Translations under genes and position numbers: made by a program | The notes under the pieces: model-generated | Told to the model about the DNA's origin: nothing | Databases searched by the model: none | Seen by the model: only the letters and a program-made list of their open reading frames with translations | NCBI GenBank assembly: GCA_963701855.1 | Contig: CAVPBK010000006.1 | Coordinates: 704,001 to 768,000 of the forward strand | Reading direction: 5' to 3' | Source: Nitrospirota bacterium | Lineage (GTDB): Bacteria > Nitrospirota > Nitrospiria > Nitrospirales > Nitrospiraceae | DNA length: 64,000 nucleotides | Part shown: piece after piece, positions 7,232 to 54,877 of the stretch | Layout of the letters: each line of letters opens with the position of its first letter | Numbering within the stretch: position 1 is the stretch's first letter

Positions 7232-7795
7232 TTAGGCCTTCAACTTCGAAATGAACTGTTTGCGGAACTTGACTACTTTCGGTCCGACGACGGCTGTACA
7301 GTAACCCTGAAAGGGATTCCGCACAAAATATTCCTGGTGATAAGACTCGGCTTCGTGCCAGATCCCGGCAGGAGTGATCTCCGTCACGATCGGATTGGCA
7401 TAGAGCTTCGCATTTGTCACGGCTGCGATCACCTCCTCAGCAATCTGCTTCTGCTCAGGCCCATGATAAAAAATTGCCGACCGGTATTGAGTCCCGGCAT
7501 CATGTCCCTGCCGATTGAGTGTCGTAGGATCGTGGATGACAAACAATACTTCTAGCAATTCGCGATAGCTGACGACGTTGGGGTCGAACGTGATACGTAC
7601 CGCTTCCGCGTGACCAGTCTTGCCGCTACAGACAGCTTCATACGTCGGATGATCGACCTGACCACCTATATAGCCGGATTCGACCGCTATCACACCTTTC
7701 ATCTGGTCATAGACCGCTTCAAGGCACCAAAAGCAACCGCCGGCTACGGTTGCAATGCGATATCCAGTCTGCGCTGGAGATACGGTGTGTCCCAT
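7232..7795 (-). CDS. msrA: peptide-methionine (S)-S-oxide reductase
   Basis: GGCFWC, GHAEAV, HDPTTLNRQG, AESYHQEY. Confidence 0.96.
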   Translation of the reverse strand: MGHTVSPAQTGYRIATVAGGCFWCLEAVYDQMKGVIAVESGYIGGQVDHPTYEAVCSGKTGHAEAVRITFDPNVVSYRELLEVLFVIHDPTTLNRQGHDAGTQYRSAIFYHGPEQKQIAEEVIAAVTNAKLYANPIVTEITPAGIWHEAESYHQEYFVRNPFQGYCTAVVGPKVVKFRKQFISKLKA

Positions 7796-48508: not shown

Positions 48509-49268
48509 TTACATGAACTTCATAAACTTATCTTTTGTCTCGTCCATCACTTGAGCCGTAATGGTCGCCAGTCCACGTTCCTTCGCCACCCGCTCAACTT
48601 CTTTTCGAGCCATGGGACGGATAAAGTCCGGGATATTTTCAAGCCGCTTTTCAGCTTCCGGCGTCCAGGCGATCCCATTGCTCGAATCGTTCTTGGAATC
48701 GTCCATCACTTGCAGGGTGATCGTCTTGTAGCCCTGCTTGCGAGCAAAGGCCTCCACACTGCTCTGCACCATCGGCTTCACGAACGAGGGAAGGCGGTCG
48801 AGTTTTTCCTTCGCATCGGCCGACCAGGCAAACTCTGAGATCGTCGGTCCAGCATCGCCGGGCTTACCGCCTGAGCGTGAATCCCATTTCAGCCACCATC
48901 GCAGAGAAGGGGCAGCCGCCGCCGGACTTCTCTCCAGGCTTGGCTGCCGGTGCAGCCGTCGCTGCGGCGACCGCCGGCTGACCACCTTGGATCTTCTCGT
49001 TCAAATACGCCGCCATCTGACCAGCGCCTGCGGCTGCTTCGTCTTTCAGCGTACCCCGCGTCATCTCAAAAGGCTCGGCCTCAACAGTACGCCCACCCAG
49101 CTTCACCCCGAGAGAACTGACCATCTGGGTTTCACCTGGATTCGTCACCATCGAGAACTTGGCATTGCAAGACGGACAGCCGAAGAACACGCCGAGCGTG
49201 CCCTCCCCTGGCTTCTCCACCTTCTCAAAGTTCATGTAGGTTTCACAGTTGAGGCACACAAATTTCAT
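48509..49268 (-). CDS. zinc-ribbon plus two PCP_red-like domains (apparent +1 frameshift near 48875)
   Basis: CLNC/CPSC N-terminus and GGCPF in ORF 48864-49313; two W[ST]xxA...PxF repeats in ORF 48509-48985; one extra base joins them. Confidence 0.8.
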
Positions 49269-49360
49269 GGCGTCTCCTCTTTGCTGGCTACGGAAAAACT
49301 CGTTTATACACAATACATCTTTGGAATCTTACATTATGGTGATGATGCCAGAATACCCTG

Positions 49361-49480
49361 AGGATGCTCAAAAAGTCCGTCCAGCAAGGCCGCAGCGAGC
49401 GAAGAGGCGAGGCGTACGCTTCGGTACGTTGAGCCTCTGAGCGATGCGAGAACGATGCTGGTGGACTTTTTCAGCATCCT
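49361..49480. repeat. palindromic MITE/REP-like repeat, copy 1
   Basis: AGGATGCTCAAAAAG...CTTTTTCAGCATCCT termini; core GCAAGGCCGCAGCGAG...GAGGCGTAC..GTACGTTGAG...GCGAGAACG. Confidence 0.9.
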
Positions 49481-49495
49481 GTTAGGTACGTGACA

Positions 49496-50418
49496 TCATA
49501 GCTTGTCGGCCAGCACCTTCTTGTAATCGATGAGCGTCCTGATGCGCCCGGCAATTTCCTGGTACCGTTGAATCGTCGGGTACGTGTCGTCGAGCAATGG
49601 CTCTCCCTTGTCGAACGTGCGCGCGAGTTTCCGGTCGAATGGAATCCGTCCGAGCAACGGCAAGTCCAGCATCTCGCACATCGCCTCGGTGTTGCCTTCG
49701 AATAACTCGTTCACTTCACCACAAGAAGGACAGCGATACTCGCTCATATTTTCGACCATGCCCATGACCTTGATACCTATATCGCGGGCATAGGTGACCG
49801 ACTTCTGCACCACATCCGATGCCACCTCTGATGGCGTCGTGACGACAATCGCTCCTGCCAGGTCAGGAATAAACCCGGCAATGACCGGCGGCTTGTCCGC
49901 CGCGGCCCCCGGAGGGAGATCGACCAGCAGATAATCGAGCTCACCCCAGACGACATCGGCCAAGAACTCTCGAATGACATTCATTTCCATCAGCCCCAAC
50001 CACACCGGGCTGACATCCATCGGCCCTTTCCAGCGAACCGGCGACGCATCGTCCAGGAAGAAATCCATCGACGCGACTTTCACCCCGAGCGGTCCGACCG
50101 GAGGGAATCGCCCCCTCAGGCCTCATCGTCAACGACTGGCCGTGCATGCCCAACATGCGAGGCACGCAAGGTCCGTTCAGGTCCACGTCCAAGAGTCCGA
50201 CCTTCGCGCCCTGCCGAGCAAAGGCCAACGCCAAGTTGACCGTGGTCATGCTCTTACCCACGCCGCCTTTTCCGCTCATGACCACCAGCTTGTGCTTGAT
50301 GCCGGCCATGCGAGCATGAACCAGTTTGGTATTTTCCGAGATCTGTGCGAGCACTTTGGCGTCGTCTGAGTACTTCAAATTTGCCAAGAATGGCCTTCAG
50401 ATCTTTTTCAACCGCCAT
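49496..50418 (-). CDS. Mrp/NBP35 (ApbC) family P-loop ATPase (two apparent +1 frameshifts)
   Basis: [31 protein letters not shown]; extra bases near 50389 and 50104; GAGG RBS before ATG 50418. Confidence 0.9.
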
Positions 50419-50529
50419 AACGGAAACCTCTCGCTAACTATACGAATACACAGAGGATGACCGTAACACAGGGATTTCCGGGGAGTCAAACTCCATACAT
50501 CCAGTCCGCCAGATGGCGCATATTCCGAT

Positions 50530-50596
50530 GCCTAACGTTTGAGGTGAGCCGCAGCGCCACCCTGACGGCGACGTCGACTGGAGCGATTTGTTATGT
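50530..50596 (-). mobile_element. attC site 2 (slightly degenerate)
   Basis: ACATAAC-AAATC-GCTCCAG...CTCACC-TCAAAC-GTTAGGC, 67 bp, 24 bp after the cassette gene stop. Confidence 0.82.
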
Positions 50597-50620
50597 TCAC
50601 ACATGAAATTCACTCCTTCC

Positions 50621-51499
50621 TTACACCCGAAGTGGTATCTCAGATGTAAGCACTTCAATATCTCCATATCCATGCTCGGAGAGCATAAGCTCAAGTGATC
50701 GAGTCTCAGAATCGGGATCTCTACATGGACCGATCATGATTGATTGTATGGGAAGCTTTCCTTTCTGAAGGAATCCGATCTCGACGTATGGAGTCAGACC
50801 AAATCGTCCCATTCGGTACTTTGCGTCCAGCGAGAGAGTTGAAGTGGCAGGCTGGTAGATCTGTCGGTATTCGTTCTCCTCTTCAAAGGCGGAATGCTTG
50901 ATGATACAGGCTACGTTGTTGAAGATGCCCTCCAACATCCCCATGAGATAACCAACCTCAACTTCCCCAAAGTCCTGGTCGCCAAGATATTTGTTAACGC
51001 GTGCTAACAACAGTGAAAGAACCGATTCGGCAGTAGTCTTGGAGTAGATAACCTTCTCTAGCAGAGGCATTCGACCATCTATCGTGGCCATCTCGCTTGT
51101 CTTGAGCCCAATACAGTAGCCAGTTCCTGTCCCGGAGTACGCGCGCCATTGGCTAAGCACATCTGCGGTGGCAGAGTAGCATGCGATAAAGGTATCGACA
51201 GATCGGAGCTGAGAGATTGCTTTGTTGATAATTGCTTTAGATGCTCGTTGAAGGTTAGCTCCAATAAAGTTTGTGACAAAAGATACGCCTATTTCGTACT
51301 CCATTGCGTCGTTTAGACGAGACACATGCGTCGCCCAAATTCGCCCGGAGGCAATCATGCCGATTAGTGCGCGTACATCCGTGTAATGATATATGACCTT
51401 CGGTGGGTTCTCAGAAATCAACTTGGCGAGCTCTTGTCGGACCGATTCCGACCATTCATTCATGATCGCAATTCGGCCTTCGTACTCAGCGTGATCCAT
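50621..51499 (-). CDS. DUF2971-like protein (integron cassette gene)
   Basis: IYHYT, LNDAME, LSQWRAY, KHSAFEEENEYR, IMIGP. Confidence 0.85.
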   Translation of the reverse strand: MDHAEYEGRIAIMNEWSESVRQELAKLISENPPKVIYHYTDVRALIGMIASGRIWATHVSRLNDAMEYEIGVSFVTNFIGANLQRASKAIINKAISQLRSVDTFIACYSATADVLSQWRAYSGTGTGYCIGLKTSEMATIDGRMPLLEKVIYSKTTAESVLSLLLARVNKYLGDQDFGEVEVGYLMGMLEGIFNNVACIIKHSAFEEENEYRQIYQPATSTLSLDAKYRMGRFGLTPYVEIGFLQKGKLPIQSIMIGPCRDPDSETRSLELMLSEHGYGDIEVLTSEIPLRV

Positions 51500-51523
51500 C
51501 GCTACGTAGCTCGCCCAAAGTGA

Positions 51524-51595
51524 ACATAACGTCGTCGCTCACCGGCGCCGAGGCGCGCTAGCGCCGAAGGCGTCCGGTGCAGCGGCTGGTTAGCT
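51524..51595 (-). mobile_element. attC site 1
   Basis: AGCTAAC-CAGCC-GCT(G)CACCGG(A)CGCC...GGCGCCGGTGAGC-GACGAC-GTTATGT, 72 bp, 5/6-nt spacers and two extrahelical bases. Confidence 0.93.
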
Positions 51596-52523
51596 GCCAT
51601 AGTTTGCGATCCCAAACGGCACATGGACACATGGGGTTGAAGCGGATGCGGGCTTGAGGTGACCAATCTGGTCATCGAAGAAAAATGTGTGGCTTGAGTA
51701 CGTCAAGCACCAGTTTCTTTTCAATCCCACCAAGCAAAAACAGCTCATCCGCATCGATACCAGCACTTGAGAGGGTTTTGATGAGCCGTTCATGCGCTGG
51801 GGCATTTCTGGCAGTAACAATCGCGATTCGCAGCATTTGCGTGTACTGGGCCATGTTCTGAGCTTTCTGCCTTTCGAGCTTCTGAAACTCAGAGATCTTT
51901 AGTAGCAGAGGCATGAGCGGACCGGCTTGCAAGGGCTTGTCCTTGAACTTCTTCTCGTGTTCGTGAAAAAGGTCCAGGTTCCCTGTGTCTTTATAAACTA
52001 CTTCAGCCTCGTCACCTGCAATAACTCCATCGAAGTCGAACGCTATTCGCAGTTGCTTGTCTTCATCGGTCGGAATTGTTTCGCAGGGAAGCACATAGCC
52101 CGCGGGAAAGCCGCTCTGGACGGCTGTGGCAACTTCATCCTTGTTTGTGCTGAGGTAAAGAACCGCACCGACCGATTGCATGTATGGATACGGAACCTGA
52201 CCTGCGAGAAAGAACGATCGAGAAATCTCGAGTTCGTAGTGAGCAACTGCATCCATTACGCGAAGCCCAGCATCGGCATGATTTCTGGACAGAATGACGA
52301 CTTCGATTGGATGTTCGTCTTTATAAATTCTGTTGAGGTGAAGTAACCGCTGAATGAACGGGAACGCAGCGCCGCGTTTCGGAACATCTTTTCTGTGTTC
52401 TCGTTGATACGCGCGAAAATCGTCCACTCCAAGCTTCAAGTAGAGATCGTGTTCAGCCGCCAAATCGAAAAGCGCTGTTGATGAGACAGCGACGACCAGC
52501 TTCCTTTCGATTGGGAATGGCAC
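51590..52523 (-). CDS. 5'-nucleotidase (cN-I-like HAD family), integron cassette gene, apparent +1 frameshift near 51683
   Basis: LVVAVSSTALFDL, IAFDFDGV, IVTARNAPAHER, PHIF/FDDQ; corrected stop is the TAA inside the attC inverse core. Confidence 0.88.
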
Positions 52524-52533
52524 GTGCTATGGC

Positions 52534-52563
52534 AGCTAACAATGATTAGGCGGACCTGCATAA
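52534..52563 (-). mobile_element. attI-like site (junction with the first cassette)
   Basis: TTATGCAGGTCCGCCTAATCATT-GTTAGCT: core site with no attC hairpin upstream. Confidence 0.65.
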
Positions 52564-52717
52564 GCTGCAGATGTCCGATTTCCTATCCGTCTAACACGCT
52601 ATCGATTCTCTTGAAAAGTACGCGATAATCCCTGCGATCTCGGTCAGTTACTGACCATGTTGCGGTTTATCACGGCATCTTATGCGGATCGGCATAATAC
52701 ACCCTTCTTGGATGAGT

Positions 52718-52828
52718 TAACAGCCGGTCCAGCAGACTACGAACGCCCGCCGGTACACGGTTGAGCACATAGGTATAGATCTTCGTCGTCCTCACGTCAC
52801 TGCACCCGAGCAACTCCTAGATCGTGCG
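52718..52828 (-). pseudogene. intI: integron integrase C-terminal remnant
   Basis: Translates RTI*ELLGCSDVRTTKIYTYVLNRVPAGVRSLLDRL, matching the IntI-type RTxQELLGHxDVxTTMIYTHVLNRGxxGVRSPLD. Confidence 0.88.
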
Positions 52829-52902
52829 GCTGAGGAAAACCTGTTTCGTGCAGGAGTGCTTCGATGGCCTGCACGTATGGAACAAGAGGAAAACACCCCC
52901 CG

Positions 52903-53026
52903 CAGGATGCTCAAAAAGTTCGTCCAGCAAGGCCGCAGCGAGTGAAGACCGGAGGCGTACCCTCTGGGGTACGTTGAGGGTCTGAACGATGCGAGAACGC
53001 CGCTGGCGGGCTTTTTCAGCATCCTG
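52903..53026. repeat. palindromic MITE/REP-like repeat, copy 2
   Basis: CAGGATGCTCAAAAAG...CTTTTTCAGCATCCTG, same core as 49361-49480; abuts the cysN stop. Confidence 0.9.
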
Positions 53027-54877
53027 TCAGATCGAATACTGAAAGGTCGGCTTCGCCCCAATCGCCTGAGCCAGAACTCCACGGCGCTTGAGCTCCTCAA
53101 GAATCCGACGAGTGGCCGCATCAAAGTCTGCTGGGCCTGACAGGACGATATCCGTATTGGGAGGGACTTCTTCGGGCGCTTTGCTCATGTGAATGGCGAT
53201 GACTGGGACCGGATGGACGAGCGTCCTGATGGCCTGTGCCGCTTCCGCATAGGCCATGCCGAAGGGATTGGTTGTCGAAACGACGATCAACCCGGTATCG
53301 ACCAGCAGCCGCGCCACTTCGCCATAGCGGCGAGCCATCTCGGTCGCCTGCCCCCGTTCATCCTCCGAAAGGTCTGCATCGAGGCCGCGGCGGAGATTCT
53401 CTCCATCGAGCAGGTACGCATGCCGGCCATCAGCTACTAGCCTCGCCTCGATGGTCCTGGCAAGGAAGGATTTCCCCGTATGCCGCCCGCCGGTCACCAA
53501 TACAATGGCGGCTCGATGACCATATTGCTGCGCGCGATCCTCGACGCCGACTTGACCCTTCACCCAGGCAAAGTCTCGCTGCCGCGCTTCTTCGCGGAGA
53601 AACTCCTGATCGTCATGGACCAGTTCTGTCACGATGCCGCCACCGGCAATGTCATATTCATCCACGAGGACGAACCGGCCGGTCGACTCAAACGAGGCCG
53701 AGAGGTCGAAGGCAACCGGCGTTTTGGCCCGAATCGTCAATTCAGCGACTTGATTCTTATTGACCACGCTACTGCCTTGTTGCTGAGCCAGATCCATCGT
53801 ATCGATGATCCGATGAATGGTCGCCACCTCACAATCGACTTCCCTCGTCGCCACTCTGAGTTGATAGCGCCGCCCCCGTTCCAACGGCTTCCGGCCCAGC
53901 CAGAACACATTGGCTCGAAAGGCCGTCGACACCAGCGGGAGTTGTTCTTGATGCGAGGCTACCTCTCCTCGTTCGACAAAGATCTGCTCATCGAGCGTGA
54001 CGCCGACTGATTGGCCTGCATGACCCTCTACTGGCGGAGGATCGATATTGAACGCTTCAACGGACTTGACCGTCGCCCGTTTGTTCGACGGCGAAAAAAC
54101 CAGGGAGTCGCCGACCTTCACACGCCCGGCTGTGACGCGCCCTGCAATGATGCGGCGGGCGTCGAATTTATACACATCCTGAACCGGCAGACGAAGCGGT
54201 TGTTCGAATCGTCCCGGTTCCTTCCGAAAGGCGCTGAGCGCGTCCAATACCGTCGGACCGCTGTACCAGGGCATCTGCTCGCTCCGGTTGGCAATATTAT
54301 CTCCAAGCTTGGCGCTGACCGGAATGATCTGCTGTGGTACCGCCTTGAACTGTCCGAGGAACTCTCGATATTCCTTTTCGATCCCATCGAACACATCCTG
54401 TCGGTAGCCGACCAGATCCATCTTATTCACCACGACGGCAAACTGGCGTACGCCCAGGAGCGATAAGAGATAACCATGTTTTTTGGACTGTTCCTTCACG
54501 CCCTCCAAGGCATCGATCAGCAGCAACGCCCCTTCAGCCCGGGCTGCTCCGGAGATCATGTTCTTGAGAAACTCCTTATGACCCGGCGCATCGATGATGA
54601 TGTAGTGCCGGCCCTTCCAGCCGAAAAACGTCCGCGCCGTATCGATGGTGATTCCTTGCTCCTGCTCCTCAAGAAAGGCGTCGAACAGAAATGCGTACTC
54701 AAATTCCTTGCCCTGCTGGCGGCAGATCGCTTGAACTTTTTCAAGTTTGCCGTCTGGCAACGATCCTGTATCGGCATAGAGACGCCCCAGCAAGGTGGAC
54801 TTCCCATGGTCCACATGCCCGACAATGACGATATTCAAATTGTCTGATGGTTTCATAGTCGTTGTTGTCATTCGCAT
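53027..54877 (-). CDS. cysN: sulfate adenylyltransferase subunit 1 with degenerate APS-kinase-like C-terminal domain
   Basis: [25 protein letters not shown]-terminal GGRHTGKS and [10 protein letters not shown]. Confidence 0.92.

Follow-up and report, generated by a model that had tools for sequence, protein, structure and literature searches.

Integron remnant between cysN and mrp

We analyzed a stretch of 64,000 nt (the window) from the genome of a Nitrospirota bacterium, likely a soil Nitrospira (assembly GCA_963701855.1, contig CAVPBK010000006.1, positions 704,001 to 768,000), in which the remains of a chromosomal integron lie between the cysN and mrp genes. Read on the minus strand, the order is cysN, a palindromic repeat, the C-terminus of an integron integrase (IntI), attI-like DNA, two gene cassettes and mrp. 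Comparison with related genomes suggests that the cassette array at this locus probably kept changing after the integrase gene had been deleted.

The IntI remnant (52718–52828, minus strand, 37 codons) reads RTI*ELLGCSDVRTTKIYTYVLNRVPAGVRSLLDRLL and matches positions 280–315, i.e. the last 36 of the 315 positions, of the TIGR02249 profile (E 2.6e-10, 40.2 bits). It shares 24 of 34 residues with the C-terminal end of an intact integron integrase from its genus. A glutamine codon has become TAG, the motifs LGH and THV have become LGC and TYV, and the original stop codon is now TTA, so that the stop is lost; the tyrosine of the IY motif is retained. Thus, the first-pass annotation correctly described an IntI C-terminus with a TAG and two replaced histidines. 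The stump falls below the integrase profile cut-off and, as predicted from its length and the internal TAG, the IntI of the window is dead, neither complete nor functional. Matches to XerD (E 0.002) and XerC (E 0.0029) were much weaker (17.5 against 40.2 bits).

To locate attC sites we used a covariance model, R1, built from a seed of 21 attC sites, all from relatives, with the window's own site excluded; six of 27 candidates from relatives were dropped (four implausible, two duplicates). In the seed alignment 90.5% of cells pair, and covariation exceeds that of the shuffles (0 of 500). The model detected two sites on the minus strand, attC1 at 51524–51595 (45.1 bits, E 5.8e-8) and attC2 at 50530–50596 (31.7 bits, E 5.2e-5); the next-best hit in the window scored 12.7 bits. 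The sites have R'', L'', L' and R' boxes and form the hairpin of the bottom strand that is typical of attC. Absence of attC hits was the outcome that the first-pass annotation had set against its integron proposal, and here two strong hits were found.

These sites delimit cassette 1 (51530–52539, 1010 bp) and cassette 2 (50536–51529, 994 bp), both on the minus strand, each with one open reading frame and one attC, co-oriented and with complementary ends. The start of cassette 1 is complementary to its R'' sequence over 14 nt and that of cassette 2 over 11 nt, the G left of the crossover being included in both counts. On re-measurement we obtained the same lengths and exact complementarities as had been annotated before. 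The chance of the further matches past the invariant GTT is ~2e-7 for cassette 1 (11 matches) and ~2e-5 for cassette 2 (8 matches). With two attC sites and a stump below the profile cut-off, the locus is classed by sequence as a CALIN (an attC cluster that has no integron integrase).

attI site and inverted layout

Between the remnant and cassette 1 lies a predicted attI site of type A (52534–52700, minus strand, ~165 bp), recognized by homology to the site behind an intact intI gene. Its boxes, also on the minus strand, are a left palindromic box at ~52679–52698, L at ~52545–52551 and R at 52534–52540. The crossover G|TT is at 52540|52539, and sequence identity with the relatives ends at GTT. 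At three loci with intact intI (L059, L060 and L061) the same element starts ~20 bp after the stop codon of intI; past its final GTT the DNA is unrelated, and attC sites in the same orientation follow downstream. From the end of intI through attI the window is 71% identical to an intact integron over 290 bp. The inverted layout, in which intI points toward the array on the strand of the cassettes, is real because intact intI genes of the genus are directly followed, past their stop codon, by this attI; what had been proposed from the window by itself is therefore seen in its intact relatives as well.

The layout is shared with more distant integrases. Of 80 loci related to the intact IntI of the genus, attC hits were obtained at 35, of which 22 are inverted and 13 canonical; in the 39 top-ranked relatives every locus with such a hit (20 of 20) is inverted. 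The closest named relative of this IntI is from a Nitrospira (89%), which makes Nitrospira the probable genus, and the best matches include relatives from Treponema, a Spirochaete, a Planctomycete and Synechococcus. No close phage-borne relative of the IntI of the genus was found (best 51%).

One intact inverted IntI (P0001, L059:1501-2733) has a ~95-aa N-terminal extension with a weak match to the HARP domain (E 0.16); the extension is matched in the Treponema relatives too. At least five types of attI follow IntI ends in the genus (L040, L043, L209, L228, L237 and L246; L062, L063 and L065). At cysN, type B is present in six intervals; none of the six full-length intI genes was seen next to it.

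The locus in related genomes

The comparison covered 85 genomes, that of the window (G000) and 84 relatives. Of 75 cysN matches, 68 gave anchored intervals (in 67 genomes); the other seven lie at contig ends. An attI of type A or B was present in 37 of the 68 intervals. The 52 closed intervals range in size from 181 to 11,439 bp; attI is present in 30 of them, attC only in five and neither in 17. An invariant interval between cysN and mrp in the relatives, which had been named as evidence against an integron, is thus not what we observed. By its fixed location next to cysN the element would be a sedentary chromosomal integron, but one with two cassettes and no large array.

None of the 68 intervals has an intact intI; the longest IntI match found there covers aa 368–411. 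Integrases scoring over the family cut-off were detected in six of the 85 genomes, always away from the cysN locus (one is split over two frames). The comparison of intervals for variable cassettes and full-length intI that the first-pass annotation had suggested thus gave first cassettes that differ and no full-length gene. In one relative, G004, an intact type-A intI at another locus coexists with an orphan type-A attI at cysN.

Copies of attI are also found inside arrays (G004, G047, G060, G065, G069 and G078). In the arrays of G065, G060 and G047 an attC crossover marks the start of a recurrent linker of ~120–130 bp (longer in G047), behind which lies an almost full-length attI (L281:5807-6092 and 7323-7619; L282:2853-3159; L278:11059-10707). 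Arrays without attI also end in this linker, which may represent either a cassette that carries attI and no gene or a boundary between tandem blocks. In two relatives (G069, L244, interval 2954-2994; G081, L265) another attI or stump lies behind a repeat that is itself preceded by a displaced copy of the cysN 3' end, an arrangement that would result from adding a block ahead of an old platform.

In the window, the stump begins at a repeat resembling a miniature inverted-repeat transposable element (MITE) or a repetitive extragenic palindromic (REP) sequence (52829–53026, no strand assigned), with 16-nt inverted arms; it consists of a core (52903–53026) and an extension whose right end adjoins the intI truncation point. 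The repeat has ~190 copies in this genome, and similar right ends were found at 13 further places. Across the genus the platform starts right after the repeat and is eroded to aa 376 (as in the window), to aa 387 or into attI; these junctions suggest that deletions may have been triggered at repeat ends. A common deeper junction with no intI left is present in G072, G084 and G007, which carry the attI allele of G000 at 86–92% identity; the first cassettes of all four genomes differ.

The repeat is present only upstream of the array, the next copy (49360–49483) being located beyond mrp. Paired MITEs at both array ends with target duplication, the signature of a MITE-mobilised integron, were not found in the window. 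We detected no autonomous partner of the repeat in the genome: two 1.25-kb candidates contain ordinary genes, and four Y1 transposase genes could not be linked to it. An Rfam search of 49000–54000 gave no match. The bases preceding the ends of the repeat family are most often CTAG-like. Another short palindrome, of the GGGGTCAGACCCC type, occurs 21 times in 196 kb of intervals versus 30 times in the whole 4.3-Mb genome of G000; it is found in the cysN–mrp intervals of 17 relatives, often at block junctions or cutting an attC, and is absent from that of the window.

Change of the array after loss of intI

The truncation at aa 376 was found by pattern in five of the 85 genomes, always at cysN, and by alignment in two more (G042 and G015). 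In all seven genomes different first cassettes are joined at the crossover, with start complementarities of 14 nt in G000, 12 in G089, 11 in G092 and 9 in G064. Codon positions 1 and 2 hold 22 of 36 differences in four stumps but 4 of 29 in a set of four intact genes (three of them closely related); the stumps therefore diverged without protein constraint. Genomes that share one junction and have different, precisely joined first cassettes indicate that the locus changed after the death of the integrase.

The same pattern is seen in the larger set of type-A sites, where 35 platforms are followed by 30 distinct first cassettes. In pairs at least 85% identical over the 110 bp before the crossover the first cassette differs in 36 of 39 cases, pairs that are not independent of one another. 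Cassette 2 of G089 and G092 is common to the two at 99% and cassette 1 is not. Hence only a part of the first-pass description of a 'frozen' chromosomal integron between cysN and mrp stands: it is a chromosomal integron and is static in this genome today, while the lineage, in which genomes with the same junction differ in their first cassette, was not frozen.

In this assembly, which is 97% complete, we found no intact intI, no IntI over the cut-off and no convincing match of the IntI insert; the array is therefore static now, barring an integrase that is brought in from outside or hidden in a gap. Other integron parts are present. Four regions resemble a type-A attI (C6:756535, C6:634624, C14:90689 and, weakly, C6:861497). 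A second IntI C-terminal stump, of another class, lies at C6:178097-177961 (L313), co-oriented with the downstream gene, with no clear crossover seen there. At least 10 attC sites were detected, a lower bound as 150 of 1486 candidates were scored; those outside the window include C13:80065-81557, C14:43157-43253 and C6:1270795-1270852. The cluster on C13 corresponds to a locus that has an intact intI in G047 and G052.

Mechanism and alternative explanations

We consider it fairly probable that the locus is the remnant of an inverted-layout chromosomal integron whose array kept changing after the deletion of intI, by the action of IntI from another locus or cell together with homologous exchange. 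An intI-attI platform would first have been inserted between cysN and the promoter of mrp, where it built up an array. A single early deletion, with its endpoint at the end of a MITE-like repeat already resident there, would then have removed ~90% of intI, and more repeat-bounded deletions would have worn the platform down to an extent that varies among lineages. Cognate IntI, encoded in a few genomes at other loci or present transiently, would have inserted and excised cassettes at the orphan attI, and homologous recombination would have swapped blocks of the locus between species. That in-trans supply is feasible is supported by G004, which has both parts, the intact type-A gene and the orphan site. 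In Vibrio, IntI is reported to recruit cassettes from transformed DNA (PMC12614218). A wider version, which we regard as possible but still tentative, is a Nitrospira-wide network in which attI docking sites lacking an integrase occupy several fixed loci and have been kept through the radiation of dozens of species. A rare in-trans integrase would load these sites mostly with defence cassettes, gene-less attI-bearing cassettes would reseed sites inside arrays, and platform and enzyme would be uncoupled.

A number of observations weigh against continued activity at the orphan attI. Most of the genomes are fragmented metagenome-assembled genomes. Decay is also under way: besides the 17 closed intervals without attI and attC, the crossover of G070 is mutated, and the attI core of the window's genome has several differences from the common form. 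A scan for the sigma-70 consensus found none in the attI region and one site in 2.8 kb versus 2.4 expected. The histidine of LGH is replaced in five of the seven junction genomes and retained in G042, whose stump is 57–68% like the others, and in G015 the stump runs into an attI of type B; these two are recombinants or separate alleles given the kept histidine, the divergent stump and the switched attI type. The cysN and mrp trees disagree, which points to homologous recombination. Monophyly of the junction group on the cysN tree was rejected (approximately unbiased test, P 1.8e-76); a group that is not a clade fits an ancestral lesion and fits lateral spread of the junction as well. The attI core is 89% identical versus 77% for the stump and 70% for four-fold sites of cysN, an excess that is biased since the cores were picked by similarity. 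We found no clear case of one complete cassette present at two separate chromosomal loci, and the best match of a cassette to an array with intact intI is 340 bp at ~78%; many of the contigs that could not be anchored may belong to the cysN locus. Finally, comEC (PF03772) was not found in the window's genome, which does have dprA.

Given homologous recombination at the locus, arrays could have entered as blocks of attI plus cassettes from unsampled intI-positive lineages. Taken to its end, this gives a platform catalytically frozen since the intI deletion, a replacement island of integron origin whose diversity was made earlier or in those unsampled lineages and then redistributed by homologous recombination and deletion. 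We regard this as somewhat unlikely. In its favor, the block in G089 and G092 differs (82% identity in the stump region) between flanks that are 98.0% and 96.9% identical, cassettes are shared across species at this locus at 90–99%, the internal attI of G069 lies behind a second, 41-nt copy of the cysN 3' end, 11 of 12 relatives in the genus do have comEC, and arrays with dead intI in Xanthomonas are described as more stable (10.1101/2025.06.18.660453). Two results count against it. None of the 68 intervals at cysN has an intact intI, and in the 36 close pairs with different first cassettes the change falls at GTT with the attI allele kept up to GTT. Precise loss or gain of a first cassette is a reaction of IntI.

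Mobility of the unit of repeat, stump and attI, carried by the MITE-like repeats or by an attI-bearing cassette that seeds docking sites, would explain why stump or attI DNA has matches in 66 of the 85 genomes, often in several places, why a second junction (aa 387) is present at a non-cysN locus in G062, and why several of the attI copies inside arrays lie ~130 bp past an attC behind the recurrent linker. We find it improbable: the window's junction occurs only at cysN, adjacency to a repeat with so many copies by itself says little, the distal end of the array has no repeat and no autonomous partner was found, and several other platform loci keep their synteny between genomes, some of which have an intact intI there, as in old integrons decaying in place. 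An origin of the remnant from XerC/D or a phage integrase, with hairpins formed by chance or by REP structures, is hardly credible. The peptide is short and has weak XerC/D matches, and the genome is rich in palindromic repeats. However, the profile scores rule out XerC/D, a grouping which had been recognized from the start as fatal to an integron; the DNA identity with an intact integron extends over the whole end of intI and attI; and the two attC hits, with none comparable elsewhere in the window, rule out chance or REP hairpins. Continued change of an integron remnant by IntI acting in trans and by homologous exchange thus remains the reading we prefer.

Cassette genes and flanking genes

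The gene of cassette 1 (51590–52523, minus strand) encodes a 5'-nucleotidase-like protein (PF06189, E 9e-100) that matches the candidate defence family PDC-S08 of PADLOC (E 1.6e-107) over the protein length. It reads as 283 aa with an extra base in a T run near 51685; its homologues with 85–95% identity have 310 aa and a stop codon inside attC, and one is then followed by an attC. Cassette 1 as such was not found in the 84 relatives, where there is one homologue with 44% identity, and we found no solved structure matching a homologue.

The gene of cassette 2 (50621–51499, minus strand) encodes a 292-aa DUF2971 protein (PF11185, E 1.7e-9, above the cut-off; PDC-S31, E 1.8e-8; Atlas score 0.98), and the DNA of this cassette was not found in the 84 relatives. 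DUF2971 is a predicted ADP-ribosyltransferase family (PMC12522546), which includes the tested anti-phage system Aristaios (PMC11381338). Both cassettes are thus predicted to carry candidate anti-phage genes, and defence cargo has been reported in chromosomal integrons (10.1101/2024.07.02.601686). Possibly the cassettes are read through from the co-oriented cys operon; this is a guess.

Upstream of the array, cysN/cysC (53027–54877, minus strand) encodes sulfate adenylyltransferase subunit 1 with an adenosine 5'-phosphosulfate kinase domain (TIGR02034 above the cut-off; PRK05506, E 1.6e-135) and is 94–98% identical to the genes of genus relatives. Downstream, mrp/apbC (49496–50387, minus strand) encodes an Fe-S carrier ATPase; PF10609 matches it in two frames, with a single extra base near 50101 in comparison with seven relatives. 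The single-base frameshifts near 51685 and 50101, called by comparison with relatives, may both be assembly errors; no public sequencing run contained more than a third of the words of the window. The distal flank of the array (50490–50535, minus strand) is alike in integron-bearing relatives and was not seen in short empty intervals; it is probably the right half of the original empty attI. After mrp, two further genes (48509–49313) are conserved alongside it genus-wide, one for a small Zn-ribbon protein and the other for a protein that has two PCP_red domains.

Comparison with known systems

Integrase-less arrays outnumber complete integrons, and whether such an array is a dead end or still acquires cassettes is the matter at stake. 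By itself, the single locus in the window is ordinary. In-trans mobilization has been proposed in papers without a natural series that shows it, and the present locus supplies such a series: a lesion dated by a shared junction and an unconstrained stump, an attI that can be traced, and 35 platforms followed by 30 different first cassettes, with an intact cognate integrase of the same genus available to test against. The locus further provides a definition of attI for an inverted-layout integron of nitrifiers. In the literature that we searched, which included few subscription papers, neither this locus nor any attI from Nitrospira turned up, and for integrons of nitrifiers the search returned only two CALINs, both in the genome of Ca. 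Nitrospira inopinata (PMC9024848).

The integron of Xanthomonas has the canonical layout, whereas the locus in the window is inverted. The two are alike in having one ancestral locus by a housekeeping gene, ilvD in Xanthomonas, with intI mostly dead or deleted and arrays that are species-specific (10.1101/2025.06.18.660453); the same preprint describes further CALINs at a few conserved loci and cassettes shared across species. It also states, quoting Gillings 2005, that the same intI lesion usually goes with identical arrays; here the same lesion goes with different first cassettes, in a comparison of species and thus over a longer time scale. Another difference from the ilvD integron as described there is that no intact intI was found at the Nitrospira cysN locus. 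Dead intI genes are common, nearly a third of the total (PMC2426708).

A parallel in layout is the inverted integron of Treponema denticola, where intI is transcribed toward attI, in the direction of the cassettes (PMC3607928, PMC4889954). Like the window, T. phagedenis has kept attC sites without intI; that remnant is described in these accounts as static, with attI left unanalysed, while here attI was followed across 37 intervals and at several loci per genome. Copies of attI inside arrays of the relatives recall the Delta-attI-type cassettes of integrons belonging to classes 1 and 2 (PMC12901181); the window has none, and the internal attI copies of the relatives are near full length and chromosomal. 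As for cargo, cassette 2 resembles Aristaios, a lactococcal single-gene anti-phage system, in carrying DUF2971; PDC-S08 and PDC-S31 are candidate entries of PADLOC, and the proteins of cassettes 1 and 2, respectively, were matched to them by family profile.

CALINs are defined by at least two attC sites without a usable intI (PMC4889954, PMC9024848, PMC9668308). The locus in the window differs from those described in retaining a recognizable attI together with a stump of intI that has insufficient length for the published test of pseudogenes (>50% of the profile). Mobilization of CALIN cassettes by an outside IntI has been proposed (PMC4889954, PMC9668308); our comparison argues for gain at attI, beyond mere donation of cassettes. 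Inverted integrons, dead intI genes and CALINs are already known; what is new is the comparative evidence that a headless platform did not freeze.

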